Position numbers and translations under genes: made by a program. Shown piece by piece: positions 6,805-33,890 of a stretch of DNA of 64,000 bases. The notes under the pieces were generated by a model, which ran no database searches, was not told the origin of the DNA, and saw only the letters and a program-made list of their open reading frames with translations. The DNA comes from a virus (Duplodnaviria; Heunggongvirae; Uroviricota; Caudoviricetes): the IMG/VR virus record IMGVR_UViG_651053022_000007, positions 28,836-92,835 of that record. One strand, given 5' to 3'. The first letter of the stretch is position 1. Every line of letters begins with the position of its first letter.

Positions 6805-7121
6805 AATTCACCCGTATAGAAACCATTTTCATGACGGTATGAGAGTATACCTTTAAGGTAATACCGTCACCTGTACCGCCGAAAAATATGGTGTAGAGTG
6901 AATAGAAATGAATACGTAAAAACAAAAACCCTCTGCAAAAACAGAGGGTTGAGTTGGCATCTGAATAGGAATGATTTGCTATGAGTTAGCTGTTAATCAT
7001 TCCCACTCAATTATTTACGGATACCATAACCAATTGAGTGATAACATTTTTCCAAAACTCAATTTTCCTCGTACCGTTTTATATACCGTCACCGGAAATC
7101 AGTACCATGAAAAATGCCATG
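6805..7121. promoter_or_regulatory. integrase upstream region / candidate attP
   Basis: repeated ATACCGTCAC-like motifs, degenerate palindrome ATACC-TTTAA-GGTAA at 6847-6861, hairpin AACCCTCTG..CAGAGGGTT at 6925-6950; lies between int and the lysis cassette. Confidence 0.3.
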
Positions 7122-8991: not shown

Positions 8992-11454
8992 TCAATTCCC
9001 TGTTAATTGCAAAACTTGCTCTTCCAGCTTTTTAACCCTGCGTCTCATCATCGCAGATTCCAGAATCAGAGCCTCTTCATAACGGATACCGTAACATTCA
9101 CCAGCCTCGACGGCTTCGCGTACCAGAACCTTTGTCTGTATAAGTGGGTAAACTCCTGCAGAATGCTCTTCTTCCGTCACATCCCTGTATTCTGCCGGGG
9201 TCTCATTCCACTTGTCATAACAGATAAATGCCAGTCGTGACACATCTATGCCTTCATTCTGAAATACACTGATAACATGCTGCGCAACTGCACCAAAGTG
9301 CCATCTTGCTCCGTCTTTACCTTTCACTTCGATCCTGTCAAGGTACTGGTATGAAACCCATTCCACTCTTTCCCATGCGTCCAGTATTTTCTCATCAATA
9401 ACCTCTGGAGCAGTCTTGAAACGCGCATCGGACAGCACCGTAAACGCTGACTGGGTAAATCCCCCCGACCATGCACGACCAGCCAACCCAAGAGAATAAG
9501 TATTCGTTGTCGATGGTGTCATGGCTGAATCAGAAAACTGTATATATTCTGAATTTCCAGTAGATATTCGAATATTTCCATTTATTAGCGACATAGTGCC
9601 TTTAGTATTATCACTATTGAATAATTTCAATTGCGAACTTATACCGCCTCCCACAGCCAGAGATACATCGCCTTCAGCAAGCATTCTGAATTTATCTGCA
9701 GAAACAAGCGTCTGGTTAGCAAGGTTAAAATATTTAACCCACCATTCAAAACGCCCTGACATAGTCCCAACGTACTGACCAAGCGCAGGGACGTGAACAA
9801 CATTGCTATTTGTAGTGCCGTCTATACTGGAAATACCAGTCACCGCTGATGCAGAACTCAGAATATTATTTCTGTCACCCGGATGTTTAATTTCAACAAA
9901 GTTCCTGATACACCCTTCCTCGAAGGTAACCACGCCGGAAGAACTATACATGGGGAATATTGACGCATAATTACTGCGTGCAGCATCTAAGAAACGAATG
10001 GTTGTAGATGTCTGCAGATCTCCTGATTCATTTTTCCCATCACACCCAGTCATTAGAATATTACTGGCAATATTATTATTTCCCTGAACGGTGACTCCGT
10101 GCGCCTGCTTTGCGTCCGATTCAGAGTAATCAACCAGCACATTCGAAATCAGGTTACCAGTCCCCTTGCCAACAACTACTGCGGCGTATTTTGGGTTGTT
10201 AGCCATTACACTGCTAATGATATTATTCGTTGGGGCAGTTTCCGTCTCAGTTCCATTGTAAACAACGTGCTGACACTCTTCACCAATAACATTGCTGACA
10301 ATGTTATATTTTGCTGCTGTTTTAAGTTCCACTGCACCAAACTGAGGATAATTTCTGGCTATCACACCATCAATTAGCGTATTTTGCGATGAATCAAAAA
10401 GCACACAACCTGCTTTTTTATTATTTGCGAACCCTAAATACTCTCCTCTTATATCTCTAACAATGTAACCTGACGGAATACCATTATTCGGATAAGCGAT
10501 CAAGCTAAATCCTGTTCCTCGCGTATTTGTAAATCTGATATTTTTAACCGATACATCATGGCCACCTGAAAATGACACCTGGTGTCCCTGCACACTATCA
10601 TCTGATTTATTTCCCATAATTGTTAGCGTACTAAGCATGCCACCATCGGGCATGTTAAAAACCAGATGATTACCATCTCTGTCATACTGTTTTATCGTTC
10701 CCCCACCTGTTCCGTACAAGCCACAACGTGAAAGAGAAACTAAAGATGTATTGAATACCCCTTCCGGAACAAAAACACTGCTAAACGAATGTAATGATTT
10801 TGTAAAAGCATCCTTGTTATCATTTAAGATTCCATTTTGAGCTCCAAAATCCTTAATGCTGACACCATCACGCATCTTATCCTGGAACGTTCTGTATACC
10901 GCTCCAGAACCATACTGAATAAACCAACCAAAACCACCAATAACTCCGGCGATTGCAGCATCGACATAATTACGCATTGAGCGATTATTTACAGCGTCCT
11001 GCTCAAGTGATGGATCGGCAAGGTTAGATATTCTGTTTTGCTTTGCATCGTAATATTTTGCAAGCAAAGATGGTTTCATCAATGCACGTCTGAACCACCC
11101 AAAACATCGCTGGATCAGCATCGTCAGGTAGTCAAATGCATCCTCATGAACTTCGGGGAAAAATTTTCCCTGATTGCGAAGATCAGTCTCCTGCACCACA
11201 TCAAGCACACGCTCTATCGTGATTCGCCAGCCAGCAGCAAGCGGCGACGGAAGAACCACTGCACCGCCACTATAAGTTCCCGCCCCTGTTACCGTATAAC
11301 CAGCATCCAGCACTAGTTTTGTAACGTTACCGTTAAGGTCAGACACCTGAACAACCAGGTCGGATTTTTTGAAAATACGGAAGGTATACGGAAATGATGT
11401 CGTAACGCCGTTACCTGTGTATTCGTTGTGGTCAACTTCGGTTGAGACCGTCAT
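8992..11454 (-). CDS. tailspike / tail fibre with C-terminal S74 intramolecular chaperone domain
   Basis: 820 aa; conserved N-terminal head-binding-like segment (NEYTGNGVTTSFPYTF), long beta-rich central part, C-terminal chaperone-of-endosialidase-like domain (DARFKT...GARWHFGAVAQ). Confidence 0.8.
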   Translation of the reverse strand: MTVSTEVDHNEYTGNGVTTSFPYTFRIFKKSDLVVQVSDLNGNVTKLVLDAGYTVTGAGTYSGGAVVLPSPLAAGWRITIERVLDVVQETDLRNQGKFFPEVHEDAFDYLTMLIQRCFGWFRRALMKPSLLAKYYDAKQNRISNLADPSLEQDAVNNRSMRNYVDAAIAGVIGGFGWFIQYGSGAVYRTFQDKMRDGVSIKDFGAQNGILNDNKDAFTKSLHSFSSVFVPEGVFNTSLVSLSRCGLYGTGGGTIKQYDRDGNHLVFNMPDGGMLSTLTIMGNKSDDSVQGHQVSFSGGHDVSVKNIRFTNTRGTGFSLIAYPNNGIPSGYIVRDIRGEYLGFANNKKAGCVLFDSSQNTLIDGVIARNYPQFGAVELKTAAKYNIVSNVIGEECQHVVYNGTETETAPTNNIISSVMANNPKYAAVVVGKGTGNLISNVLVDYSESDAKQAHGVTVQGNNNIASNILMTGCDGKNESGDLQTSTTIRFLDAARSNYASIFPMYSSSGVVTFEEGCIRNFVEIKHPGDRNNILSSASAVTGISSIDGTTNSNVVHVPALGQYVGTMSGRFEWWVKYFNLANQTLVSADKFRMLAEGDVSLAVGGGISSQLKLFNSDNTKGTMSLINGNIRISTGNSEYIQFSDSAMTPSTTNTYSLGLAGRAWSGGFTQSAFTVLSDARFKTAPEVIDEKILDAWERVEWVSYQYLDRIEVKGKDGARWHFGAVAQHVISVFQNEGIDVSRLAFICYDKWNETPAEYRDVTEEEHSAGVYPLIQTKVLVREAVEAGECYGIRYEEALILESAMMRRRVKKLEEQVLQLTGN

Positions 11455-11558: not shown

Positions 11559-11573
11559 TTACCTTTCAGGTAA
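11559..11573. promoter_or_regulatory. operator-like palindrome TTACC-N5-GGTAA
   Basis: TTACCTTTCAGGTAA read directly. Confidence 0.45.
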
Positions 11574-11908: not shown

Positions 11909-12223
11909 GGTTTGCAATCACCAAATGGAGTGCTTATATTTACCTTTGCGGTAAATTTACAACGCACTCCTCTTGTGCCATAGTAATCGAGCACTGGCAA
12001 AATCCAGTGCCGGGATTGGCGTCCCGGATTACTAAAAGGCGCATTCACCGCGCAAGCGGTTTTTTTATGCGTATAGCACGGCCACATTCGTATTATGGTG
12101 GGCTGTGTGGGGGCACCGAAAGGTGCGCCGGGTCCTTTTAGCCGGTTACGCCAACCCTGCACAGTTCACCACCAACCGATTGGCGTCGGTAGTGGTGATT
12201 AACCAGACTAAAAGGTAACCACT

Positions 12224-12919
12224 ATGACAGCTACAAAAAGCACGTCCATTTTTTCTTTCGAATCCCAAGCCGATATACGGGTAATCGTCATTAATGGTGA
12301 GCCATGGTTTATCGCTTCAGATGTTTGTCGGGCTATAGGCATAGCAAACCATCGAGATGCTGTTCGAAAACTTGATGATGATGAGAAGGGCGTCGCTTCA
12401 ACCGACACCCCTGGCGGTGAGCAAGAATCGATCATCATCTCCGAGTCAGGCCTCTACACACTGATCCTCCGCTGCCGCGACGCAGTGACACCAGGCACTA
12501 TCCCCTACCGCTTTCGCAAATGGGTTACAGGTGATGTTCTTCCTCAGATCCGTCGCACCGGAAGTTACATTAAAAACTCGCTCCCGCAGGAAGAACGCAT
12601 AAAGATGGTTGCCGACCAGGTAGCCAGCGCCACAGCATCAGCAGTGATGCAGGCAATGAAGGTAGAGAACAAAACCTACAGCGCCCCACTGAAGCCCGGC
12701 TACCGCAGCCTGATTCATTCGCCGTCTGGTGTTCTTGGCCTGACGGAGAACTCACTGCTGATGAATCTGCTGAACCAGTTACAGGACGACGGGCATGACG
12801 TATCGGGCGCGGCGGCGGAGCTGACCACCATGTTCTGCTACATCGTCGGTGTGAGCAAATGCCTGCGTGATATCCAGACGCACGCGGAGTACATCAGCGA
12901 CAAAGCAGGGTTCTTCTGA
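12224..12919 (+). CDS. ant: Bro-N domain antirepressor (Ant)
   Basis: 231 aa; N-terminal Bro-N-like region (IRVIVINGEPWFIASDVCRAIGI...SGLYTLIL). Confidence 0.75.
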   Translation: MTATKSTSIFSFESQADIRVIVINGEPWFIASDVCRAIGIANHRDAVRKLDDDEKGVASTDTPGGEQESIIISESGLYTLILRCRDAVTPGTIPYRFRKWVTGDVLPQIRRTGSYIKNSLPQEERIKMVADQVASATASAVMQAMKVENKTYSAPLKPGYRSLIHSPSGVLGLTENSLLMNLLNQLQDDGHDVSGAAAELTTMFCYIVGVSKCLRDIQTHAEYISDKAGFF

Positions 12920-12985
12920 CGGGCGGCGGCACAGGGATGTGCCTTTAAAATAATCATTGGCGATGTGATGTAGATTCGCGTAATA

Positions 12986-13000
12986 TTACCTTAAAGGTAA
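12986..13000. promoter_or_regulatory. operator-like palindrome TTACC-N5-GGTAA
   Basis: TTACCTTAAAGGTAA directly followed by AGGAGG RBS. Confidence 0.45.
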
Positions 13001-13011
13001 AGGAGGCGCGA

Positions 13012-13179
13012 TATGACAGCGTTGAAAAATCGTACTCAGCACAATGAACAAGCCAAGCAATGCTGGGATGTCATTGGAAAAGTTATGCTTGGTCGCGCAA
13101 GCAAAGAGCGCGACAAGGATATGGTTTACCAGACAGGAACATCTTTTAGCGACTTCAAGGCGGCATTTCGCTCCAAATA
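13012..13179 (+). CDS. small hypothetical protein (55 aa)
   Basis: ATG 5 nt after AGGAGG; MTALKNRTQHNEQAKQCWDVIGKV...; not in supplied track. Confidence 0.3.
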
Positions 13180-13200
13180 GAAGCACATCAGGAGTTTTCC

Positions 13201-13644
13201 TTGAAGTTTAACATTAGAATATCTAATAGTTTTCTACATGGGGAAAGCAACACCCCTTTCGCTGTAGACGGACCTTTCCTTACTGATGATGAAATAAAAA
13301 TCATACAAAGGTTTTTAGAGGATGTTGCCAATGGAAGGGCGCTTGTTGGAAAAAACAAGCCATCGTGGGTTGATGATAACCATGATAAAATTCCCGGCTC
13401 AGACAATTATGAGCAAGAGAATTATTGGCATTATCATTGTGGGCCAACATGGTATCCAAACACATTTAAGAATTATACCATTAACTTAAATTTCAACCCT
13501 GGCGGAATGCATTCTAATGAATGCATTCATTATGCAAAAAATGATAATGAAATTGTCATTGTTGGATTTTCAAGAGAACACATACCTTTCCTTTCATCAG
13601 ATGGAAACAACAATCCGCTTTTTAATGATGAAGAAGAAGAATAA
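13201..13644 (+). CDS. hypothetical AT-rich moron protein (147 aa, acidic C-terminal tail)
   Basis: TTG start 8 nt after CAGGAG; low-GC coding region; Cys/His-containing, ends NDEEEE; followed by terminator. Confidence 0.45.
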   Translation: MKFNIRISNSFLHGESNTPFAVDGPFLTDDEIKIIQRFLEDVANGRALVGKNKPSWVDDNHDKIPGSDNYEQENYWHYHCGPTWYPNTFKNYTINLNFNPGGMHSNECIHYAKNDNEIVIVGFSREHIPFLSSDGNNNPLFNDEEEE

Positions 13645-13666
13645 GCCCGCGCTGCGGGCTTTTTTG
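13645..13666 (+). terminator. rho-independent terminator
   Basis: GCCCGC-GCT-GCGGGC hairpin plus T-run directly after stop. Confidence 0.6.
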
Positions 13667-13737
13667 TGGACGAAACAAAAGTCAGTGCTACACTCATTGA
13701 CGCCACATTGAGGTGGCTTATAGATGGAAATTTCACA

Positions 13738-13899
13738 ATGAAAAAAGCATTTGCTGCACTGTTCGTTTTGTTGTCTCTGGTAGCTTCAACTCAGGCCTTT
13801 GCCGGTCGTTGTCAGCACGACAGCGATACTGCCGCTGACGGCTCCCGCTGCGGTGGGCGTTCTGCGGATTCCCGCCCGGGCGGCGGTGGCATTCGTTAA
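13738..13899 (+). CDS. small secreted protein (53 aa) with signal peptide
   Basis: MKKAFAALFVLLSLVASTQAFA then Gly/Ser/Arg-rich mature part with 2 Cys; within ORF 13666..13899. Confidence 0.35.
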   Translation: MKKAFAALFVLLSLVASTQAFAGRCQHDSDTAADGSRCGGRSADSRPGGGGIR

Positions 13900-13935
13900 A
13901 AACAAGGCCGCGAAAGCGGCCTGTGACATGTCACG

Positions 13936-14496
13936 CTACATTGATATATGATTCATAAAGTAGCTTAAAGATTTACTTCCCAGAAAAGAAATTTCTTTTC
14001 CTGGATATGTCGCAATAATTGAGCATGACTTATCCCCGTTAGAGGTAACAAATCCTGAATAACCTACTTGTTCTTTACCATTTTGTTGCTTGGCTAAAAA
14101 GTAGAGGTAGCTTATCTTTTTGCCCTCTGGGTAAAACTCTGCCAAACCAGTATCGGTGATTGAATATTTTATTCTCCCGCCTTGAGTAACGTTTTCCATC
14201 TCAAGTTTAGCTATGTCTTTTCTGTTGTATTCAGCATTGATTTTCCTTTCGAAATCAATGTTGTTTTCAAATGAGTAGGAAGCAACAGTCTGAATAGATG
14301 GGAACACGTTTATCTGGATGCCCCCACAGTCGGCACAGGTATAAAGGTATGAATCAGATGGAATCCCCATAAAAGAAAACTGAGTTACCTTAAATTTATC
14401 GCTATCTCCAAAGTATTGAAGTTCGCATTTAACATTTTGCCCTGCAAAAGAAAATGCAGACATCAATATTGAAACAAAAAATATAATTGCCTTCAT
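13936..14496 (-). CDS. secreted protein with N-terminal signal peptide (186 aa), moron
   Basis: MKAIIFFVSILMSAFSFA signal-like N-terminus; AT-rich; 2 nt downstream of ejection-protein gene on same strand. Confidence 0.55.
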   Translation of the reverse strand: MKAIIFFVSILMSAFSFAGQNVKCELQYFGDSDKFKVTQFSFMGIPSDSYLYTCADCGGIQINVFPSIQTVASYSFENNIDFERKINAEYNRKDIAKLEMENVTQGGRIKYSITDTGLAEFYPEGKKISYLYFLAKQQNGKEQVGYSGFVTSNGDKSCSIIATYPGKEISFLGSKSLSYFMNHISM

Positions 14497-14498
14497 TA

Positions 14499-17051
14499 TT
14501 ATTTACCTAGCATGAACTGCGATGGTGGGATCAGAAAGTCGTTCCCCTGCTCACGCTCAACACGGCGCTGATAACGCTCAAGAGAGCCTGGGTCAAGGGC
14601 ATCTTGTATCCGGTTCAATATTAAACCATTCATCGCCGTACGAAGCCAGAACACGTTGAGGAATGGCGTATTGTCAAGTGCCGTGCGATACCAGTCACCC
14701 AAATCTGCATCCCCTCTCGTGGTCTGCTGGAGCAGCGTGATAATGCTGTCAGCGTTCGATGCTGCTGGCCCCATTAGCGACGTAACCGGCCCGGCCCCCA
14801 TGCGGTTGACCTCACCAAACATGAAGTCACCCAAGATGCCAAGACCGCCCCCCTGAGATGCGGCTGCGAGAAACGTCTTGGCATCTGCCGGGCGTGGTGT
14901 TTGCCCTTTCAGCATGAGTTTTGACTGCATGGAGATATAACCAAACATAGTCGCCCAGACAAAGAGGTTTGCAGCACCAAGGAAAGCCCCCTTCCCGTTA
15001 CGTAGCAGCGCATTCGTCAGCGATCCGGTTTTCGACTCACCAAGCCCAGCAGGAATATAACCACGCCCGAATACTTCGCGTCCTAGTACGTTCTGCATGA
15101 AGCTTGCAGTGAACGATTTGTACTGACCAGCGAATCGTATTGCTTCCCCAGCCACCGTTCCTGGCACCGTGCCCATCTTCATAAACGCCTGCGTGCGATC
15201 GCCAGGCTCTGACATGGCGATATTCAGACGGTCAAGGATGTAGCCGCGCAACTGCCCTTCCAATTGATCGCGTGCGTCAGCGATAGCGCGCTGCGTTGGT
15301 TTGATCCCCTTACTCTCTACATAACCGGCAATCACTTCGTCAGGCACGCCGCGGATGCCGCTGGTCGTCATGAACTTACGACCTTCGCTATCGGCCATGT
15401 CCATGTTGCGAAAAATTTCCCACTCACGTTCGCCAATACCGTGCAGATCCAGCACGCGTCGCAGGTCTTCCGGTAGCCGCGCATGAGACTGGTCAGCATT
15501 CTTTGCAAGCCAGTTGGTTATCATCATGGCGTTGCTGTTGCGACCGCTCTCGGTCCAGAAGTTCATGAGGTTGTACTTAAAGAAAAGCTGCTGCGCGCGA
15601 CCAAGCTTTCCATTCAGCGTGTCATCACCAGATATGCGCCGGATGATTTCCTGCGTCATGGAGTCGGAATAAACTCCGATAGAGGAAAGGATCTCTTTCT
15701 GCTCCGCGCTGTTGTAACGCGTGAAGCGGCCTCTCATAGCACCAAGCAACGCCTGCATAAAATTCTGCCCTTGGTAGCGCATCTCGGTAGCGGCGATAGG
15801 CACGTCGTTAAACGATGAGATTACCGCGCCACCAAGTTGGCTCATACGCAACCAGCCGCGTACAGCCGCCGACGCATTGGCCCAGCCTACGCTGCCAGGA
15901 ATATTTAGCGAGCCGTCAACCTGCGGCATTACGGTACGGTTAATGCGACGCACCTTCGTCATGTAGTCAGCCAACGCTGCCGGTCTTCCGGATTTGCTGA
16001 TATCTTCAGCAATGGCGTCCGTCAGGTACTTAAACATGTTCTGTGGGTTAGTGCCCAGTACGCGCATCATGCCCGTTGTGCGGGCAGCGCTGTTTAAGCC
16101 ACCAAACAGCGCTTCTCGCAGGCTGCCGGTGCCGAATTGCTGGTTGTACTCGTGCCACGAGATACCATCTTTGAAGTGCAAAATTCGCTCTTGGCTGGCG
16201 CGTTTAGCTGCGTTCGCCGATCCCTTAAAGCCATTCATCCAATCGGGCTTTTCAGATGTAAGATGCACGCCGGAAGCCAGCCCGTTATAAATGTTACGCA
16301 TGAACTGCTCGCGGTCAGCCACGCCGTCAAAAGTGCGCTCATCAAGGCGCGGGAGAATAGCATTTCGCCATGCTTCATAACCTGCGGCGCGGATCTTCAT
16401 GATGTCGTGTGACTGGCGCACTATATAGCCCGGCTCTTTGCGTATCCATGCCCCGGCGCGGTTCTCATCAATGCGCGCAGTTTCCTGCCATTTCATGATG
16501 ATTTGTGCAGCGCTTACGGATTGCTTTGTCATACCGTCAGTTGACTGCCCGCGCCCTATGCGCCACATTGCATCGGCAATTTCCCGGTCATTGCTGCCGC
16601 TGGCGATGAATTGCACCAGCCCGGCACGGTCAAAATCGTAGTTGATACCGGAATGATACTTGCCGCGCAGTTGCGCCACCTCCGAAGATACCGACCGGCG
16701 GGCGCCGGTACGCGCATCGTTGCGGCCAACCAGCATTGCTTCAAGCCCGATATCCGGGCGGTCTTTCCAGATAGTACGAAGCTCTCTAAGTCGTTGTGCG
16801 GCAATACGGGCGTCGATTGCCTTATTGCGAGCCTCAATCTGTTTTGCCAGCATATCGGCATTGCTCAGTTCTTCCGCTGCGCGCATCGCGGCCTCTTCCA
16901 GAGACAGCGCCTCATTGGTCGCCAGAATTCGCCTAGTGGTGTCGTTCATGTCACGCACCAGCGACTCCATCTCATCGGAAGAAAGCTCGCGACCAGCGGC
17001 AGCATTTACACTGCGCTCGCACTGCGTCAAAAATTCGTTTGCTGCCATCAC
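14499..17051 (-). CDS. internal virion / DNA-ejection protein
   Basis: 850-aa ORF in series of three large genes between tail and tailspike genes, as for podovirus ejection proteins. Confidence 0.5.
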   Translation of the reverse strand: MMAANEFLTQCERSVNAAAGRELSSDEMESLVRDMNDTTRRILATNEALSLEEAAMRAAEELSNADMLAKQIEARNKAIDARIAAQRLRELRTIWKDRPDIGLEAMLVGRNDARTGARRSVSSEVAQLRGKYHSGINYDFDRAGLVQFIASGSNDREIADAMWRIGRGQSTDGMTKQSVSAAQIIMKWQETARIDENRAGAWIRKEPGYIVRQSHDIMKIRAAGYEAWRNAILPRLDERTFDGVADREQFMRNIYNGLASGVHLTSEKPDWMNGFKGSANAAKRASQERILHFKDGISWHEYNQQFGTGSLREALFGGLNSAARTTGMMRVLGTNPQNMFKYLTDAIAEDISKSGRPAALADYMTKVRRINRTVMPQVDGSLNIPGSVGWANASAAVRGWLRMSQLGGAVISSFNDVPIAATEMRYQGQNFMQALLGAMRGRFTRYNSAEQKEILSSIGVYSDSMTQEIIRRISGDDTLNGKLGRAQQLFFKYNLMNFWTESGRNSNAMMITNWLAKNADQSHARLPEDLRRVLDLHGIGEREWEIFRNMDMADSEGRKFMTTSGIRGVPDEVIAGYVESKGIKPTQRAIADARDQLEGQLRGYILDRLNIAMSEPGDRTQAFMKMGTVPGTVAGEAIRFAGQYKSFTASFMQNVLGREVFGRGYIPAGLGESKTGSLTNALLRNGKGAFLGAANLFVWATMFGYISMQSKLMLKGQTPRPADAKTFLAAASQGGGLGILGDFMFGEVNRMGAGPVTSLMGPAASNADSIITLLQQTTRGDADLGDWYRTALDNTPFLNVFWLRTAMNGLILNRIQDALDPGSLERYQRRVEREQGNDFLIPPSQFMLGK

Positions 17052-18745
17052 ATCCCCCGGTTAATCATACAGGCGGCAAATGCCCGGAAAGCGTTGCTCA
17101 TGCTATTGTCGCTGGCGTCGGCACGAATATCATTGAGTTTCTGGCGCAACGTGGTCGCAAGATCAGGGTTATCGACAGCGATATCGTCAAGCAGGGCGTT
17201 ACTCAGGTTGAGCTCGTTATCAAGGTCTGCAGCGGCAGCGGTAATTTCATGATCTGCCTTTTGCGTTTCTTGATAAACCCGATCGGCTGTTTCGCTTGCT
17301 GGGCGAGCCGTTTCATCAACCTGCCGTGCCGGGTTCTGTATGCGATGGATGGCGCGTTCACGCAGTGCTGGTTTGTGCAGTTCATAGAAGGGCTCAACAT
17401 CTGGGCTACGTCCTTCCATCATGTGTGCCAGCGCAGCGCGATACGCCTGCTGGTTCACGTTCCAGTCAGCATCCCTGATGGCGCTTGCGGCAGTGCGAAC
17501 TGCGCCAGCGACCGGCGACATCTGCATGCCGTCCAGGATCTGCTGCGCACGCTCGGAAATGGTGACTTTCAGGTCGTCGGGGATCTCGCCGCGGGAAATC
17601 TGAGACTGGCGCCAGCGCGCCTGCTCTGCTGTCGCGTTCTGCTCCAGCGATGTGTTGATCTCCTGATTGCGTGCAGCGATGGCGTCTTTCTCGGCCTGAA
17701 TCTCTTTCAGTGCCCTAGAGCGCGCATCCTTAAACTTCATCCGCTGCCCCTGATACTTTTTGGTGCGCTGCTGCAGCGTCGCATCAAGCGAGTCAGCATG
17801 ACGTTGATTAGCCGCAAGCTCGGCACGCAGGTCGGCAACGTTACCGATCTGCCCGCTCTGTAACTCCTGCTGGCGCGCCATATAGTCAGGAACCACGTCG
17901 TCATAAGCTCGGCTGTATGCGTAGCTCTCCGCTTCACTGGAAATGGCCGCCGCCAGATCTGCGTTAGCGCCAACCTCAGGGATATTCACGCCCGCCGGAA
18001 TGTTGTCAGGCGTTATCACTGGGGTTGGCTGCGCATCGCCAGAAAACGCCGGGGACTCTCCCGTTGCAGCATCGGGAACGCGACGCGGTCGCACGATATC
18101 GGCGATAAGGCCGCCGCCGGCATGCATTAGACCGCCAGCCATCGTGTTAAAGAAAGTACTTTCCAACGCGTTGCTATAGGTGAAGTCGTCACCTTCCGCC
18201 GCCGCTGCCAGCCCGGTAAGCGGCACGGTCACCAACGCCTGCGCTGCCCCCATGCGTGCACCAGCAACAAATCGCTCGCCAAATCGGCCAAGCACAGAAG
18301 CCGCCTTTGCTTCTCCAGCGAACGGAACCAGCGCCAGCGCCACGTTACCAGGATCTGCCATTGAACCAGCTAGGCTGGCTGCGAAATTAAGCGGCGTGGC
18401 TACCCACCCGCTCGGTGCCGACATCGCGATCTGCTGGCGTGCCAGAGAATCTTTGCGTTCGGCAATAACATGATCGAGAAAAGCCTGCGTAACGCCAGAA
18501 TCTGGCACGTTTATGCTCTTTACGCCGTACTGCTTCAGGAGCTCATCCGCTTCCTGCTTACTGATAACTGTAGAGTTTGGGTCATTCGCCAGCGAGTCGG
18601 CCTGCGCAAAGCGGTAGCCGGACATGACCGGCCCCTCTTCAAATCCCTGCTTAAGGGAAGAAAGCAGCGATTCGCCAAGCCCTGCTGGCGCGTTGCCAAT
18701 TGGCTGGTTAATTCCCTGTCCCGGATCATCTGTGTAAATTGGCAT
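17048..18745 (-). CDS. internal virion / DNA-ejection protein
   Basis: 565-aa ORF, translationally coupled to flanking large structural genes. Confidence 0.45.
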   Translation of the reverse strand: MPIYTDDPGQGINQPIGNAPAGLGESLLSSLKQGFEEGPVMSGYRFAQADSLANDPNSTVISKQEADELLKQYGVKSINVPDSGVTQAFLDHVIAERKDSLARQQIAMSAPSGWVATPLNFAASLAGSMADPGNVALALVPFAGEAKAASVLGRFGERFVAGARMGAAQALVTVPLTGLAAAAEGDDFTYSNALESTFFNTMAGGLMHAGGGLIADIVRPRRVPDAATGESPAFSGDAQPTPVITPDNIPAGVNIPEVGANADLAAAISSEAESYAYSRAYDDVVPDYMARQQELQSGQIGNVADLRAELAANQRHADSLDATLQQRTKKYQGQRMKFKDARSRALKEIQAEKDAIAARNQEINTSLEQNATAEQARWRQSQISRGEIPDDLKVTISERAQQILDGMQMSPVAGAVRTAASAIRDADWNVNQQAYRAALAHMMEGRSPDVEPFYELHKPALRERAIHRIQNPARQVDETARPASETADRVYQETQKADHEITAAAADLDNELNLSNALLDDIAVDNPDLATTLRQKLNDIRADASDNSMSNAFRAFAACMINRGM

Positions 18746-18746
18746 G

Positions 18747-21443
18747 TTATCGTCCTGATTGCTGGCCGTTCTGGAAAATGTTAATCAGGTTGTCGCGCTG
18801 ACTTTCTGCGCTGTATTCCTTAGACTGTCCGGGAGTATATTTCACCGGAGTATCAATGAACTTGGTAATGCTGTTCCATACTGATCGGTTGGTTGTTCCC
18901 AGTTTCGCCAGATCGTTGAACGGCACCGTAATCGGGTTGCCGTCGGCACCGTTGACGATCAGCCCGTTGAGCATCAGGGTAAGTCCTGTTTCGTCGCTGT
19001 TGGTAACCCACTGCGCATTATCACGAATGCGGGAGATACTCTGCTCACGGTTGACCTCATCAGGTAGCCTTGGGTCACCAATAAGCGGCATAATCTGATC
19101 TGCTGACAGGTTTTTCAGATACGCATTGGCACCATCGTTAACGTCACGAATATCTATCCCTGCACGCTTAGGTAGCCGCCAAGTGCCATTGGTCTGGTAC
19201 TGCTCGCCGAGGATGTCCTGATACGCCTGTTTTGCTGCATCAGACGCCGACATTCCGCGCTGCATGTTGATGTAAGTAAGTCGTTTTCCCTGCTCGTTGA
19301 AGTTATTCCACACGGCAGTGCCACCAGGCTGAACAACCATCGTGCCAGCAAAATCTTTCGATTGGTCATTCCATGACGAGTCGGCGCTATCCGCGTCGGT
19401 TTTCTCAAGACTGCCGCGTAAGTCAGCAGTTTTAACGCTACGGTTTTGCCAGAGCGCATTTGCCGCGCGCGGGTTCTCGGTAGCCATGACAACCTGCAAC
19501 GCAGGATAAGCGCTCTTCTGAACCTGCTGCATCACCTGATCCGAGTATTTGCCGAACGACTGCGCCACCGACTGAATGGCCTTTACGCTAGATTCCTGCG
19601 TGTTGTCAATACGCTGCAGTACGTCGTTGACCATGGACTCCGGTAAAACTTTTTTGCTCATTATCCCCAGGCGGTCTTTTTCAGACTGTATGCGGGAAAC
19701 TAGGTATTCACCAGATGAAGGGTCATTCAGGTACTGCTGGAATGCAGCCTGCACAACCGGAGAGTTTTGTTGCAGCCATGCCCCCGGATCCGCTTCCCGC
19801 GCCTTCAGTACCTGCCCAAGCTTGACCTTTGCCGATGCATAAAGCTCTGCTTTGTATTTAAAGTCAGGGTCGTTTTCCTGCGGTGCCATTGCCTGCACGG
19901 CGGCGGTACCCTGCTGGACGTTGCCCTGCATAATGGTCTGATAAACAGGTTGTAGCGTCATTGCCTGCTGGTATTGCTGGAAGGTTTTTTCCATCTGCAG
20001 GCGCTCGGCAGGCGCTGCCTGAAGCGGCATAACGGCGGCCCATTCGTGCGCTGAAATAGGCGTCACCTGCTTACCGGCCTCAATTTTGGATAGGTCGTCC
20101 TGCATTCGACTCTGTAGCGCAACGCGACCGGCTGAAGCCTGCATGTCGTACATGCCAGCAACCTTGCTCATCATCTGCGACTTTTTGTCCGGACTCATGG
20201 CGTTCCAGAATGGCTGTGCGATGAGGTTTTCCATCGTCGCAGATCCAGGAATAGCTCCAGCACTGCCAGTTACTTTTGCCACATAATTGCGCGTCTCGTC
20301 GTATGGGATAGCTGCGGCAAACTGGGCGTTACTGACTTCGCCTGTGCGCGGATCGCCAATCTGTTTAATCCAGCCGTCAACCTTTCCTGGGCCAGCGTTA
20401 TAGGCAGCTACTGCCAGAACCGGGTTATTGTCGTATTTCTTCATCTGCGCGCCGAAATAAGCTTGCCCCAAGCGGGCATTATAGCGCGGGTCATTCAACC
20501 ATTTATCTCGGTCCCACGGCACGCCAGCAAGGCGGGCAGCTTCGGGGCCAGTATCTTCCGTCACCTGCGCTACGCCAACAGCGCCTTTTGGCGACACCAG
20601 AGGTGTTCCGTCCTTTCCGTACTGATTTCCGCCACTCTCCTGCCAGATTATTGCAGAGAATAACTGCGCCTCACTCGGTGTATCGGTTACCTCAATCTTG
20701 CCGTTCGGACCCATCATCTGTTGATACATCGGCACATACCACGCCTCCGCCGCACCGTTCGCGGCATTCTCGCGCCACGAAACCCAGTTCTGTTCGATCT
20801 CTTCCTGACTCTGGCCGTGGGCTTCGCCGTAAGCGATGATGCTATGATATGCCTTCAATCCTGCCTGGTTTGCCATTGTCGGGTTACGGAACTGCATCGA
20901 TAGGTTTTTTAGTGTCGCATCCTGCATATCCGCCTCATACTGGCGAACCTGTCCTATTTCGTACCTCCCGGCCTGCGTAGTGAACTGAATGCGCTGCTGC
21001 TGCGCCTGCTGCATGAAAGCATTACGAGCCTGTTCATCCGGCAGCGACATAGCCAGTTGTTCGACCTGAGCATCAAACTGCTGCGTATACTCATGGCCTT
21101 TTCCAATAGCATTTTTCCCTTTCAGGTTAAGCAATCCTGTTTCAGGATTATTCAGCAGATCGCTGCTTATCTGACTGAGGTTAAGAGATGCCTCCTGAGC
21201 CAGAGCGATATTGGCACGCTGTTTTGCCTGCCCCAAAACATCAATTGCCTCTGTCCCTGCCCGAACAAAAGCATCACCAATACCTGGCTGAGAAAACGTC
21301 TGCAAGCCTGCTGACTGAACTCCACGACTCTCAACCTGACGTCCGGATACTGTTGGTACGACTGGCATTATAATCCTCCGGGTAATCTGGTTCCTGCTGC
21401 TGCCCCGATTGGCGCAGGAGTGCTTTGAGTAAACGGACTCCAC
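18747..21443 (-). CDS. internal virion protein with lytic transglycosylase (SLT) domain
   Basis: 898 aa; SLT motifs AIIWQESGGNQY...VGVAQV...AYNAGPG. Confidence 0.7.
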   Translation of the reverse strand: MESVYSKHSCANRGSSRNQITRRIIMPVVPTVSGRQVESRGVQSAGLQTFSQPGIGDAFVRAGTEAIDVLGQAKQRANIALAQEASLNLSQISSDLLNNPETGLLNLKGKNAIGKGHEYTQQFDAQVEQLAMSLPDEQARNAFMQQAQQQRIQFTTQAGRYEIGQVRQYEADMQDATLKNLSMQFRNPTMANQAGLKAYHSIIAYGEAHGQSQEEIEQNWVSWRENAANGAAEAWYVPMYQQMMGPNGKIEVTDTPSEAQLFSAIIWQESGGNQYGKDGTPLVSPKGAVGVAQVTEDTGPEAARLAGVPWDRDKWLNDPRYNARLGQAYFGAQMKKYDNNPVLAVAAYNAGPGKVDGWIKQIGDPRTGEVSNAQFAAAIPYDETRNYVAKVTGSAGAIPGSATMENLIAQPFWNAMSPDKKSQMMSKVAGMYDMQASAGRVALQSRMQDDLSKIEAGKQVTPISAHEWAAVMPLQAAPAERLQMEKTFQQYQQAMTLQPVYQTIMQGNVQQGTAAVQAMAPQENDPDFKYKAELYASAKVKLGQVLKAREADPGAWLQQNSPVVQAAFQQYLNDPSSGEYLVSRIQSEKDRLGIMSKKVLPESMVNDVLQRIDNTQESSVKAIQSVAQSFGKYSDQVMQQVQKSAYPALQVVMATENPRAANALWQNRSVKTADLRGSLEKTDADSADSSWNDQSKDFAGTMVVQPGGTAVWNNFNEQGKRLTYINMQRGMSASDAAKQAYQDILGEQYQTNGTWRLPKRAGIDIRDVNDGANAYLKNLSADQIMPLIGDPRLPDEVNREQSISRIRDNAQWVTNSDETGLTLMLNGLIVNGADGNPITVPFNDLAKLGTTNRSVWNSITKFIDTPVKYTPGQSKEYSAESQRDNLINIFQNGQQSGR

Positions 21444-28657: not shown

Positions 28658-30333
28658 TGTGATTGCCCACCCTGACCACTAACTGCATTCGCCATAGCTG
28701 ACAAAACACTCGGATCCGAAGTTTTAGCTTCGCTTAGCGTCTTGGCGCCCTGTGCCGCCGCCATCCCCATCGCCATCATTTGTTGCTGCTGTTGCTGCTG
28801 TGCCCGTTGCTGGCGAGCCTGCTCAACCTGTTCCTGCGGAACAATGACGGTTGGAGACACTCCGGACATATCAGCGAATGCATCGATCGCCTGATCAACG
28901 TTGAGTTTGTCGAGAGCTTCTGGTTTCGCTTGCGCAAGTTGACCAATGAAGTTGACCGTAGACGCCAGACTGGACAGGCCGATAGACTTCTGCGCCTGAG
29001 CCATGACGGAAATGTATTCGACCTTCAGGGGCATACCTTCCATCACGTCTGGCGGTGGCGGCAGCATGTTTTTACGCACCATCATTGAGAAAGCGCGGTC
29101 AATGAGAGGATTAAGACATTCGTCGTTCAGACGCTCCAGAACCGGCCCCAACATCAGAAGTTTTTCTTCTTTCATTTCGATCACTGCTTCAACAGGCATC
29201 GAGCGGGTATTGATGTTCTGCAACATCATGAACAGATCGACAAAGTAGGCGCTGTTAATGATTTGACGAGTGTCCTGAATGTCTGCTACCAGATCTGCTG
29301 TACTGGGGTTAACCAGATAAGCAGGCCTGAAGCCATCCTGACCAGTAATCTGATCGATATACGTGATGTCGCCAGGAAGAAGGGAGGCGCGCTGATTCTT
29401 GAGGGAAGTCGGAGCAACCATCGGCGGATTGGTGGCTTTATCAATCAACTGCGACTTGCGCTTCTGGAGAAGTTGCAATGCCTTAACAGGTCCAAGCGCC
29501 AGCATACCCGGGCATGATGATCCATAAACATCTTCGCCATTAACTTCCCAGCGCGGAGCCATAATTGGAAACTCATCAAATCCGGACTCACGCAACAACT
29601 TGTCGTTATCGCCACCAACCTCGTAATAAACCGATTTGAATGGCTTGTTCTTGCTATCCAGCTTCGATGTATCGCGGTCAATGTTCGGGTAAACCGAATG
29701 CATCACGTCAATCCACTTCTCGTAGGTGCCGCTTTCCCACATGCTTTTTACGGATTCGCTGACGTTATTTAGCCCGAACTCCTGAACAAGCTGACGAACA
29801 GTCATAGAGAACTTGCGAAAACAGGTGTCCACACTGCCACGAGGTGAGTTAGCCAGGTAGTAACTGCCTATCGGGAATGGCATTGTGCGAATGATGTCCT
29901 CGTCATCCTCCAGCACCGCCATTGCACCAGTGCTGTATGTGCCGAGGCTTCCGTATAACTGCGGAAGAGACTGGTAGAGATTCGACTTATTGAACATATC
30001 GTTCATGCGGTTCTGCACCGCCTCGAGCCACAACTTAACAGGACCATAATCCATCATTTCAGGATCTGGCGTAGCCAGGCGAAACCACGGACGCGCGGGG
30101 CTTGTGATGCCTGACATCATGCCGCTGGCGAGAGTGCGCGCCGCCATAGTCCCGGTCGAATCAATAATGCGTGTATTGCGTCGATCGTTACGGTTGACCT
30201 CAGAAGTCAGAAAGCGGGAACCACGCGGGTTGATGTAATCACTCAACTCGCGCCAGTGCGGCTCAAACGACTGACGCTCGCTTTCAAGTTGTGCGAACTG
30301 TTTGTTCAATCGCTCTTTAGTTGTTTCCGCCAT
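28654..30333 (-). CDS. portal protein
   Basis: 559 aa; position upstream of scaffold and capsid; C-terminal Gln/Ala-rich tail. Confidence 0.7.
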   Translation of the reverse strand: MAETTKERLNKQFAQLESERQSFEPHWRELSDYINPRGSRFLTSEVNRNDRRNTRIIDSTGTMAARTLASGMMSGITSPARPWFRLATPDPEMMDYGPVKLWLEAVQNRMNDMFNKSNLYQSLPQLYGSLGTYSTGAMAVLEDDEDIIRTMPFPIGSYYLANSPRGSVDTCFRKFSMTVRQLVQEFGLNNVSESVKSMWESGTYEKWIDVMHSVYPNIDRDTSKLDSKNKPFKSVYYEVGGDNDKLLRESGFDEFPIMAPRWEVNGEDVYGSSCPGMLALGPVKALQLLQKRKSQLIDKATNPPMVAPTSLKNQRASLLPGDITYIDQITGQDGFRPAYLVNPSTADLVADIQDTRQIINSAYFVDLFMMLQNINTRSMPVEAVIEMKEEKLLMLGPVLERLNDECLNPLIDRAFSMMVRKNMLPPPPDVMEGMPLKVEYISVMAQAQKSIGLSSLASTVNFIGQLAQAKPEALDKLNVDQAIDAFADMSGVSPTVIVPQEQVEQARQQRAQQQQQQQMMAMGMAAAQGAKTLSEAKTSDPSVLSAMANAVSGQGGQSQ

Positions 30334-30622: not shown

Positions 30623-30659
30623 TTGACATTTAACGCGCTAATTATTACCTTTCAGGTAA
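30623..30659 (+). promoter_or_regulatory. putative promoter with operator-like palindrome
   Basis: TTGACA at 30623-30628 and TTACC-TTTCA-GGTAA at 30645-30659. Confidence 0.4.
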
Positions 30660-30981: not shown

Positions 30982-31058
30982 GTGGCATTAGCTCAGTTGG
31001 ACAGAGCAACCGCCTTCTAAGCGGTTGGTCGCAGGTTCGAATCCTGCATGCCACGCCA
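30982..31058 (+). tRNA. tRNA-Arg (anticodon TCT)
   Basis: cloverleaf folded by hand: acceptor GTGGCAT/ATGCCAC, D-arm GCTCAGTTGGACAGAGC, anticodon loop CTTCTAA, T-loop TTCGAAT, CCA end. Confidence 0.85.
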
Positions 31059-33179: not shown

Positions 33180-33772
33180 TGATTACCATCCTGACGTTCT
33201 TTGAGTCGCTTCCTGGCTGCTGCTATGCGATCAGCAATTGTCACATTCACATTAACATCCAGGCGTTCTTTGAATGCGTTGACGTCGACGTGCTTACCAA
33301 TCAGTTCGAGGTTCTTCACCTTGTCAGGCCATTTAATTTTTTTGAGGATTGTCTCTATCGAATCCTCGTTCATGTTCATGATGGTCGATGACAGATCAAA
33401 GCCACTAAGCGTAGTGCGCCAGATTTTCGGCCACTCACGGATTGGTTTAAGGCTCCCATCGTCGTTGAGGATGTCGATCACGTCCATCTGGTCGATCTCC
33501 ACCAGGCGCATGAGAACGTAATCAGCACTGACGCGCATTCGTTTGTTGCGCTCCTCCATCAACTCGGCAATCCGTTTTTGAATGCGTTCATCGCGCATCA
33601 TGACACTGGCTTTAACTGCCGCTGTATTTGGAGAGAATCCTGCGTTAATCGCTGCCTGAGTCTGGTTTTCAGGCGTTTTGATGTATGACTGGCAATAAGC
33701 CTCCTGCATTGCTGTTAGTGGCTTAAATTGCGTTGATTTGCGTTTATAGGTTTTAGGTTCAGCAGGCATCAT
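33176..33772 (-). CDS. terminase small subunit
   Basis: ORF 33176..33850 with probable internal start MMPAEPK; overlaps terminase large start. Confidence 0.55.
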   Translation of the reverse strand: MMPAEPKTYKRKSTQFKPLTAMQEAYCQSYIKTPENQTQAAINAGFSPNTAAVKASVMMRDERIQKRIAELMEERNKRMRVSADYVLMRLVEIDQMDVIDILNDDGSLKPIREWPKIWRTTLSGFDLSSTIMNMNEDSIETILKKIKWPDKVKNLELIGKHVDVNAFKERLDVNVNVTIADRIAAARKRLKERQDGNQ

Positions 33773-33890
33773 AACCACCGTGGTAATAGTTACCGTTGTG
33801 GTAATAGTACCATGCAAAATAAAGCCGCCATAGTTGGCGGCAGTATTCAAAACCCATCAAATTCATCATGCATAATCTACTCGTGACATG

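Follow-up and report, generated by a model that had tools for sequence, protein, structure and literature searches.

Gene Content of the Interval

The locus described here lies in a 64,000-nucleotide (nt) stretch of the IMG/VR virus record IMGVR_UViG_651053022_000007 (positions 28,836 to 92,835 of the record), the whole of which is called the window below. It occupies positions 12986–14496 of the window, between an antirepressor module and the genes of the internal virion (ejection) proteins, and carries four open reading frames (ORFs), encoding proteins of 55, 147, 53 and 186 amino acids (aa). The region 12900–14560 was found by megablast to match the phages HEMP4, phiv142-3, TL-2011b and phiV10, and prophage matches to it are present in 533 of 5,426 complete E. 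coli genomes. The original prediction, made from the sequence alone, had drawn a comparison with P22-like phages; the phage is a temperate podophage of the epsilon15/phiV10 type, genus Uetakevirus. All features of the interval that it had listed were recovered at their coordinates, namely, the following, shown here with the units to which they belong and the adjacent ejection gene.

12986–13661, cassette A (unit A)
12986–13000, perfect palindrome TTACCTTAAAGGTAA (TTACCTT-A-AAGGTAA), 13 nt 5' of the ATG of the 55-aa gene, overlapping the Shine–Dalgarno region
13013–13180, plus strand, gene of a basic 55-aa protein (isoelectric point, pI, 9.8), AAGGAGG 7 nt before the ATG; phrog_8607
13201–13644, plus strand, gene of an acidic 147-aa protein (pI 4.8), TTG start, AGGAG Shine–Dalgarno sequence, DEEEE tail
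13643–13661, plus strand, intrinsic terminator closing cassette A, 8-bp stem with 6 G-C pairs, then TTTTTTGTGG
13738–13899, plus strand, gene of a 53-aa precursor, signal peptide MKKAFAALFVLLSLVASTQAFA followed by G, mature part of approximately 31 aa with two cysteines
13905–13922, minus strand, intrinsic terminator immediately past the 186-aa gene, at the close of the late (ejection-gene) operon, 7-bp stem, then TGTTTTTAAC
13936–14496, minus strand, last late-operon gene, coding for an exported 186-aa protein that has a Sec signal; phrog_11983
14499–17051, minus strand, gene of an 850-aa internal virion (ejection) protein, homologues of which are annotated as internal virion or structural proteins

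The strong ribosome-binding site noted earlier for the 55-aa ORF is present as AAGGAGG together with an ATG start, and the 147-aa ORF with its TTG start and acidic tail is called as the same gene by RefSeq PGAP in identical prophages. The terminator of cassette A, also noted earlier, was found as a hairpin with a T run, the hairpin being readable on either strand. Weak matches to Trp/Phe leaders over it were below threshold and were judged to be terminator look-alikes. The 186-aa gene does lie directly after the last ejection gene, its ATG being 2 nt past the stop codon of the 850-aa gene, and 61 bp homologous to the minus-strand terminator that follows it are annotated ‘terminator’ in phiV10.

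No Pfam, NCBIfam or PADLOC model was matched by the four ORFs, and for these three collections the earlier statement that recognisable homologs are absent is correct. It does not extend further, since all four ORFs match PHROG families of unknown function, with E-values of 1e-39 to 1e-130, and homologues occur in many genomes. No mention of the four RefSeq protein accessions was found in the literature. No curated family or paper covers these proteins; the concepts involved are already established.

Independent Variation of Three Units

The interval had been taken for one island of low G+C content. Low G+C content is indeed present, but it is divided into two sub-blocks, with values of 0.36–0.42 over 12950–13700 and 0.37 over 14000–14450 as compared to 0.52–0.61 in the ejection genes, and these sub-blocks are parted by the 53-aa gene, with G+C content of 0.45–0.49. 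Cassette A (the 55- and 147-aa genes) was found in 77 of the complete E. coli genomes and cassette B (the 186-aa gene) in 57, while the two are adjacent in none (n = 5,426); accordingly, the units recombine freely and are to be interpreted separately. Instead of a single island, there are three units, cassette A, the 53-aa gene and cassette B, which recombine independently, and the combination of A and B in the window implies recombination within the conserved linker of the 53-aa gene and terminator.

Comparison of sister phages revealed two independently variable slots with one conserved gene, that of the 53-aa protein, between them. Slot A, located on the plus strand after the antirepressor gene, contains one of four cargoes.

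Genes of the 55- and 147-aa proteins: the window, phiv142-3 and ECSC054
59-aa ORF and gene of a YafO-family toxin: TL-2011b
Gene of a 210-aa protein: strain 4/0
Gene of a DUF2335 protein: Klebsiella phage BUCT711

Slot B, on the minus strand after the last ejection gene, contains either the 186-aa gene or different cargo, such as a 98-aa gene. The proposed variable accessory region between the ejection genes and the antirepressor (immI-like) module is thereby borne out, with a layout analogous to 16-sieA-immI-9 of P22; the sieA-equivalent position noted earlier is correct to this extent only. Both atypical composition and presence/absence polymorphism among related phages, two of the marks of a moron, were observed.

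It could be supposed that the 1.5-kb block was acquired recently, as one AT-rich moron island, and is active in the repressed prophage, its four proteins jointly providing exclusion, defence or lysogenic conversion. The low G+C content of the two sub-blocks, the absence of matches to Pfam, NCBIfam and PADLOC families and the different content in sister phages would agree with this. Such an origin is nevertheless very improbable, given that the sub-blocks assort independently (both are present in 0 of the 5,426 genomes), are encoded on opposite strands and belong to different transcription units. Moreover, cassette A is located behind a phage operator site, the 53-aa gene is part of the backbone and not of the cargo, and the 186-aa gene is old at its position, having diverged together with the ejection genes. 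A better explanation is that the phage, a temperate one of the epsilon15/phiV10 type, carries three independent units in this part of its accessory region, and this explanation, taken in full with the roles proposed below for the units, is held with confidence slightly above even.

Fold of the 147-aa Protein

The family of the 147-aa protein is represented by approximately 36 clusters from Enterobacterales and Pasteurellaceae, with 40–100% identity and no Pfam domain. The segments GKNKPSW and WHYHCG and the residues Y111, S124 and H127 are invariant in the family alignment, and the NP-F motif near the C-terminus, followed by the acidic tail, is nearly invariant. Of the residues of possible catalytic importance, five (K51, K53, H77, H79 and H127) show no variation, and a sixth, H110, is almost invariant.

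The AlphaFold2 model of the protein has high confidence (predicted local distance difference test, pLDDT, 90.3; predicted template modelling score, pTM, 0.85) and displays the alpha/beta arrangement of the RelE type, namely, an N-terminal strand, two helices and an antiparallel sheet. The top match of the model in Foldseek was E. coli YafQ, with a TM-score of 0.61 on the target and E-values that were not significant; a search of the BFVD viral fold collection gave nothing significant. Judging from the model, the protein very probably belongs to the RelE-superfamily fold (RelE/YafQ/YoeB-type), and in terms of fold it can no longer be regarded as a protein without recognisable homologs. Compared to canonical toxins of approximately 90 aa, it contains an N-terminal extension and two long loop insertions.

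The catalytic residues of RelE are K52, K54, R61, R81 and Y87, and those of YafQ are H50, H63 and H87. When mapped by eye from the order of secondary-structure elements, K51/K53, H77/H79 and H127 of the 147-aa protein fall at the positions of YafQ H50, H63 and H87; these residues and H110 are placed on the corresponding strands. An hhalign alignment, itself insignificant, pairs YWHYHCGPTW with YRDAHVEPDW, which is consistent with this mapping.

Distribution of the RelE-Fold Pair

Genes of small basic partners of 55–62 aa were found 13–31 nt 5' of the RelE-fold gene in seven independent contexts, and the pair is maintained across 24–85% partner identity. The contexts are of the following kinds.

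Epsilon15-like prophages of three genera, including Pectobacterium and Serratia
Erwinia persicina chromosome, where the two genes form an isolated island flanked by accA and an mtnA-like gene
Small Proteus replicon
3-kb plasmids

A homologue of the RelE-fold gene was detected by tblastn in 37 plasmid records, many of them of 2.6–4.6 kb; these plasmids are tiny and non-mobilizable and belong to E. coli, Edwardsiella, Citrobacter, Salmonella, Klebsiella, Providencia, Aeromonas and Vibrio. Of these, NZ_CP032420.1 (2959 bp) and NZ_MG212498.1 (3043 bp) were analysed over their full length; both contain the pair with the TTG start kept, and their other genes are represented on one by rep only and on the other by two small unnamed genes. 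The RelE-fold gene begins with TTG in E. coli, Pectobacterium, Serratia and both of these plasmids, and with GTG in Erwinia. The cognate small partner is thus adjacent in one operon, and the two genes move as a unit. The pair, previously considered an unclassifiable novelty, is a RelE-fold two-gene module that is also present on tiny plasmids; cassette A is a new sequence family of this module. Spread over plasmids, chromosomal islands and prophages is typical of toxin–antitoxin or defence modules.

A comparable arrangement is found in TL-2011b, where a YafO-family pair (gp45/gp44) occupies the same slot, after the BRO-N antirepressor gene, behind a TTACC-N5-GGTAA site and before the 53-aa gene, and likewise consists of a small ORF (approximately 59 aa) followed by a larger toxin-family protein. 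This slot-A protein of TL-2011b matches YafO_toxin (PF13957) with 26.3 bits, the cut-off being 25. The 147-aa protein does not match PF13957 and showed no relationship to gp44 (BLASTP E-value 1.3; hhalign probability 0.2%).

Phage-Wide TTACC-N5-GGTAA Motif

The palindrome in front of cassette A had been described as operator-like. It is present, but it is one copy of a phage-wide motif and not a private operator of the module. In the window, TTACC-N5-GGTAA is represented by 8 perfect sites and by 15 sites with no more than one mismatch, compared to 1.07 expected (approximately 15-fold enrichment); 15 sites were reached in 0 of 100 shuffles. The sites are located as follows.

301–363 and 1061–1137, site pairs flanking the gene of a 194-aa helix-turn-helix repressor (419–1003)
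6847–6861, motif site
11559–11573, motif site
11940–11954, single site over the predicted antirepressor promoter
12986–13000, single site before cassette A
30645–30659 and 33772–33804, sites of the late region (at 30645, 33772 and 33790)

One of the single sites is located before the 90-aa ORF. In sister phages, the motif was found 5' of whichever slot-A cargo is present, including the phages without the 55- and 147-aa pair. It also precedes the pair in Pectobacterium and Serratia phages and a three-gene cassette in a Klebsiella lambdoid prophage, whereas neither the Erwinia island nor the Proteus replicon has it. In the nin region of the Klebsiella lambdoid prophage (L005, 3391–4486), a perfect TTACCATTAAGGTAA site is located 55 nt 5' of the cassette in a lambdoid backbone, and the motif may have travelled there with the cassette.

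The simplest reading of this pattern is that the motif is probably the binding site of a phage regulator, likely the repressor, and the sites of this phage group are arranged much as in a multi-site repressor operator (‘stoperator’) system. With an operator before the slot and a terminator after it, transcription of the pair is probably tied to the phage repressor circuit. For the promoter of cassette A itself, only a weak 8/12 match was read by eye, along with the cassette's own terminator and operator-type site. As a phage-wide operator-type site, the palindrome suggests that cassette A is controlled by the phage and is not expressed constitutively. The possibility that the 55-aa protein is an autoregulating antitoxin binding the palindrome was considered and rejected, because the motif recurs at many other positions and also occurs where a phage lacks the 55-aa gene.

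Proposed Function of Cassette A

A function of the toxin–antitoxin type is considered probable for cassette A. In the proposed mechanism, the 147-aa protein, with its divergent RelE-superfamily fold, would be an mRNA endoribonuclease toxin, and the well-translated basic 55-aa protein encoded upstream would be the antitoxin. The conserved weak TTG start would hold the output of toxin under that of antitoxin. The pair is carried in a fixed cargo slot, with the phage-wide operator before it and the terminator after it, and its likely roles would be addiction of the carrier element, abortive-infection defence or both.

The roles of the two proteins could also be reversed, the small basic protein being toxic and the 147-aa protein neutralising it, as in HicA/HicB, or the RelE fold could be dead and the pair could form a non-toxic nucleic-acid-binding complex. 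The charge pattern, opposite to that of RelE/RelB, and the absence of sequence-level matches to active RelE families would agree with these possibilities, and the size, order and charge pattern of the pair are similar to those of HicAB. However, the strong Shine–Dalgarno sequence with ATG upstream and the weak TTG/GTG start downstream fit an excess of antitoxin and argue against reversed roles, in which the weakly started 147-aa gene would under-produce the antitoxin. No Pfam match to HicA was found, and some members of the 147-aa family are encoded behind genes of unrelated partners, as would be expected for a toxin with swapped antitoxins. As for a dead fold, the invariant K51, K53, H77, H79 and H127 resemble an active site and not a degenerate fold. 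Together, these possibilities are assessed as quite improbable.

Another possibility is that cassette A encodes a regulatory or host-takeover endoribonuclease of the phage, similar to RegB of T4, which would be switched on when the repressor is lifted, with the 55-aa protein as its RNA-binding cofactor or specificity factor. RegB of T4 has a RelE-like fold and approximately 150 aa, and the 147-aa protein resembles it in both respects. The phage-wide operator directly 5' would also suit such a role, as would the adjacent module of antirepressor and C4 RNA, the derepression of which follows induction. It is regarded as improbable.

For the toxin–antitoxin function, a number of results weigh against the proposal. 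Neither the 147-aa protein nor any of 31 members of its family matched a model of Pfam, NCBIfam or PADLOC, those of RelE, ParE, YafQ, HigB and YoeB included, a profile search of the PDB with the family gave nothing relevant, and the hhalign probability of the family against YafQ was 0.07%. The protein thus differs from the RelE/YafQ/YoeB/HigB mRNA interferases in the absence of profile-level similarity, as well as in being approximately 55 residues longer and ending in the conserved NPLF motif with the acidic tail. It is acidic and its partner is basic, with family pI values of 4.5–7.0 for the RelE-fold protein and 8.9–9.9 for the partner, opposite to what canonical pairs show. An unrelated upstream partner is found in a Pasteurellaceae phage and in the nin region of Klebsiella lambdoid prophages; for example, the 161-aa homologue in L005 is encoded behind unrelated genes of 95 and 102 aa. 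Differing partners are compatible with antitoxin swapping, and the 55-aa protein is not obligatory. Unlike in RelE-type systems, the palindrome is phage-wide and not private to the pair, so that classic antitoxin autoregulation is not implied, and should the slot be silenced by the phage repressor, the pair would be inactive in lysogens.

Secreted 53-aa Peptide

The signal peptide attributed earlier to the 53-aa protein was found and is of a typical kind. The gene matches phrog_14503 and phrog_3117, labelled ‘membrane associated protein’ in PHROGs, and is present in E. coli and Klebsiella Uetakeviruses as a conserved backbone element between the two variable slots. The E. coli and Klebsiella copies differ by 21 synonymous and 10 non-synonymous codons, and the 20-residue core DTAADGSRCGGRSADSRPGG is invariant between them. 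The excess of synonymous differences and the invariant core indicate that the gene is real and constrained by purifying selection. Its product would be a small secreted or periplasmic, disulfide-looped peptide conserved in the phage group.

Exported 186-aa Protein and Slot B

The export predicted for the 186-aa protein is supported by its homologues, in which the n-h-c signal and the AxA-type cleavage site are kept down to 29% identity while the sequence drifts. Four cysteines, C24, C54, C57 (CxxC) and C158, are invariant in the family, and no hydrophobic segment was found beyond the N-terminal signal. With a cleavable signal and no other hydrophobic segment, the product is predicted to be soluble and periplasmic and is probably disulfide-bonded. 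The family comprises 17 clusters at 90% identity and, in an exhaustive HMMER profile search among 1.84 billion proteins, 8 clusters at 50% identity, all from Enterobacterales and none annotated; the search gave no link to an annotated family. Comparison of 19 members with Pfam at E-values up to 10 gave scattered noise only.

Homologues with 39% and 35% identity are encoded at the same position, 16–24 nt after the gene of an ejection protein of approximately 850 aa. The 850-aa protein of the window is 62% and 51% identical to the counterparts beside these homologues, and only 23% identical in an E. coli sister phage without the 186-aa gene. The homologue of the 186-aa gene is AT-rich in its own genome too. 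The 186-aa gene is therefore not a recent moron, as had been assumed: its homologues occupy the same place, beside co-diverged ejection proteins, and are AT-rich there. Nor is its expression in the prophage implied, as the gene is inside the late operon, has no detectable promoter of its own and shares the late terminator.

The best sigma-70-like match in the region, on the plus strand at 13923–13952 (GTGACA, 18-nt spacer, TATGAT, 10 of 12 positions), is directed antisense into the 186-aa gene at its 3' end and may represent the start of an antisense transcript or a chance match.

In relatives, slot B contains other genes of envelope proteins. Phages of E. coli and Klebsiella encode a 98-aa polytopic membrane protein there, Stenotrophomonas phage BUCT708 encodes a 95-aa protein with two transmembrane segments, and a metagenomic relative has a 137-aa lipoprotein in addition. 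The coordinates of the slot genes in relatives are as follows.

L004, 5032–5328, envelope-protein slot gene
L021, 3696–3992, envelope-protein slot gene
L020, 5636–6049, envelope-protein slot gene
L023, 5450–5737, envelope-protein slot gene

Behind the last ejection gene there seems to be a recurrent ‘envelope-protein slot’, which recalls sieA in P22. SieA of P22 is encoded at the equivalent position and targets the ejection proteins gp16 and gp20 (PMC10461980). Both sieA and the 186-aa gene directly follow the last ejection gene and precede the immI/tailspike region, and both products are located in the envelope and are present in some members of their phage group; the known target of SieA is the ejection-protein conduit (PMC10461980). 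The differences concern topology and expression: SieA is a polytopic inner-membrane protein expressed by the prophage, whereas the 186-aa protein is predicted to be soluble and periplasmic, has a cleavable signal and lacks a detectable promoter of its own. The two proteins are not similar in sequence and come from different phage groups, that of the 186-aa protein being Uetakevirus, and the homology that defines SieA types A, B and C was not found in it.

On the basis of these analogies, the leading proposal for the 186-aa protein is that of a periplasmic exclusion factor, a role that is possible but falls short of even likelihood. Such a factor would hinder incoming phages that share the ejection type, at the step of envelope penetration or of DNA delivery. 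It would be made in lytic growth, possibly at a low level otherwise, and would be inherited together with the cognate set of ejection proteins, as a functional analogue of P22 SieA or of the T5 ‘lytic conversion’ protein Llp.

Llp of T5 is the lipoprotein responsible for lytic conversion, and it blocks FhuA at its periplasmic side. Like the 186-aa protein, Llp is a small exported phage protein, and it is made in lytic growth, as proposed for the 186-aa protein. A short N-terminal likeness, K-C-E-x-x-Y-x-x-D-x-x-K-[FY]-K, covers approximately the first 25 mature residues of the 186-aa protein and includes the cysteine that forms the Cys11-Cys58 disulfide of Llp. In a PDB profile search, Llp was retrieved with an E-value of 0.037, partly driven by the signal peptide; pairwise BLASTP gave 1e-4, and hhalign gave a probability of 63% over 42 columns. 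The local score of 50 between the mature proteins was reached by 3 of 5,000 and 5 of 5,000 shuffles (approximately 1e-3). The differences are that the 186-aa protein is 2.5 times longer, the position of the disulfide partner is not kept, and the llp gene adjoins the gene of the receptor-binding protein, while the 186-aa gene adjoins ejection genes. The resemblance to Llp is weak and is a lead only.

Several observations count against the exclusion role. Pseudomonas phage Ab31 has the same ejection-protein type with the slot empty. Llp was not recovered in the profile search of 1.84 billion proteins, and the likeness to it is not significant after correction for database size; a lipobox is absent, the signal ending in SFA followed by GQ, with no cysteine at position +1 in 19 of 19 homologues of the 186-aa protein. 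A tblastn search of 50,697 phage records, which should include carriers of sieA, gave no match to the 186-aa protein at E ≤ 0.01. The AlphaFold2 model, built from a 14-sequence alignment, is of low confidence (pLDDT 44), and no sigma-70-like promoter was found ahead of the gene.

The 186-aa protein could, alternatively, take part in infection or egress, either as a late periplasmic helper acting on peptidoglycan or the envelope before lysis or as a fourth ejection or virion protein, the hydrophobic N-terminus of which acts after ejection. Translational coupling to the last ejection gene within the late operon and strict co-inheritance with one type of ejection protein speak for this possibility. 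It is, however, improbable, as the cleavable Sec signal with the conserved AxA site would export the protein from the cytoplasm, where virions assemble, and Ab31, with the same ejection type, lacks the gene. The 186-aa protein also evolves faster than the ejection protein (35–39% versus 51–62% identity), similar to accessory or arms-race genes, and in other lineages the slot is filled by unrelated envelope proteins.

A further generalisation combines the two cassettes. The acidic RelE-fold protein with its basic partner would be a new toxin–antitoxin family with inverted charge logic in the phage repressor regulon, and the 186-aa protein would found a new class of soluble periplasmic exclusion proteins, which would recognise the cognate conduit, or its SLT component, of incoming epsilon15-like phages and co-evolve with it, slot B being a general ‘exclusion slot’. 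This generalisation is rather unlikely.

The 850-aa protein has 45–49% identity to proteins of Stenotrophomonas and Pseudomonas podophages, as compared to 23% to the alternative allele of E. coli Uetakevirus. The whole ejection module appears, from these identities, to have been exchanged across host genera.

Antirepressor Module and Neighbouring Genes

The genes and RNAs on both sides of the interval, and a tRNA gene farther along the window, are represented by the following.

8992–11454, minus strand, tail fibre gene
90-aa ORF between the tail fibre gene and the C4/isrK-type RNAs
11978–12919, plus strand, immI-like module: c4 a1/b1 targets, isrK-like small RNA, C4 antisense RNA and BRO-N antirepressor gene
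11978–12176, plus strand, C4/isrK-type RNAs, directly 5' of the BRO-N antirepressor gene
11978–12030, c4 a1/b1 target sites, Rfam 43.1 bits
11991–12066, isrK-like small RNA, Rfam 77.9 bits, above the gathering threshold
12091–12176, C4 antisense RNA, Rfam 77.7 bits, above the gathering threshold
12224–12919, plus strand, BRO-N antirepressor gene (Bro-N, E-value 6e-21)
17048–18745 and 18747–21443, minus strand, which with 14499–17051 make up the three large internal virion (ejection) genes; 18747–21443 has an SLT domain
30982–31058, plus strand, tRNA-Arg (anticodon TCT), between the terminase and portal genes, approximately 320 nt from a TTACC-N5-GGTAA site

The C4/isrK RNAs ahead of the BRO-N gene suggest antisense control of the P1/P7 immI type in a Uetakevirus. 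As in the immI region of P1/P7 (c4 antisense RNA-icd-ant), the antirepressor gene of the window is preceded by a C4 RNA, a1/b1 sites and an isrK-like small RNA, and its predicted promoter is overlapped by a repressor-type operator, which is counted as part of the likeness. It differs in that the antirepressor of the window is a BRO-N protein. We know of no counterpart in P1/P7 immI of the cargo slot located downstream of the antirepressor gene.

Significance for the Phage Group

The two-gene RelE-fold module is widespread and unannotated. Among the 5,426 complete E. coli genomes, 77 have it in prophages; it also occurs on many 3-kb plasmids and in a number of other genera, and current annotation resources for toxin–antitoxin and defence systems miss it. 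The inverted charge and the long insertions of the RelE-fold protein may mean that its target, or the way in which it is neutralised, is different.

To our knowledge, SieA of P22 is still the sole characterised exclusion protein of its kind, and its mechanism is unclear. If slot B is a general exclusion slot, short-tailed phages would fill it with unrelated envelope proteins, namely, SieA and the 98-, 137- and 186-aa proteins. The pattern seen across relatives makes the end of the ejection operon a concrete site for seeking exclusion proteins that act on DNA delivery. Taken together, the TTACC-N5-GGTAA sites and the C4/isrK RNAs sketch how a common but little-studied group of E. coli prophages is regulated.

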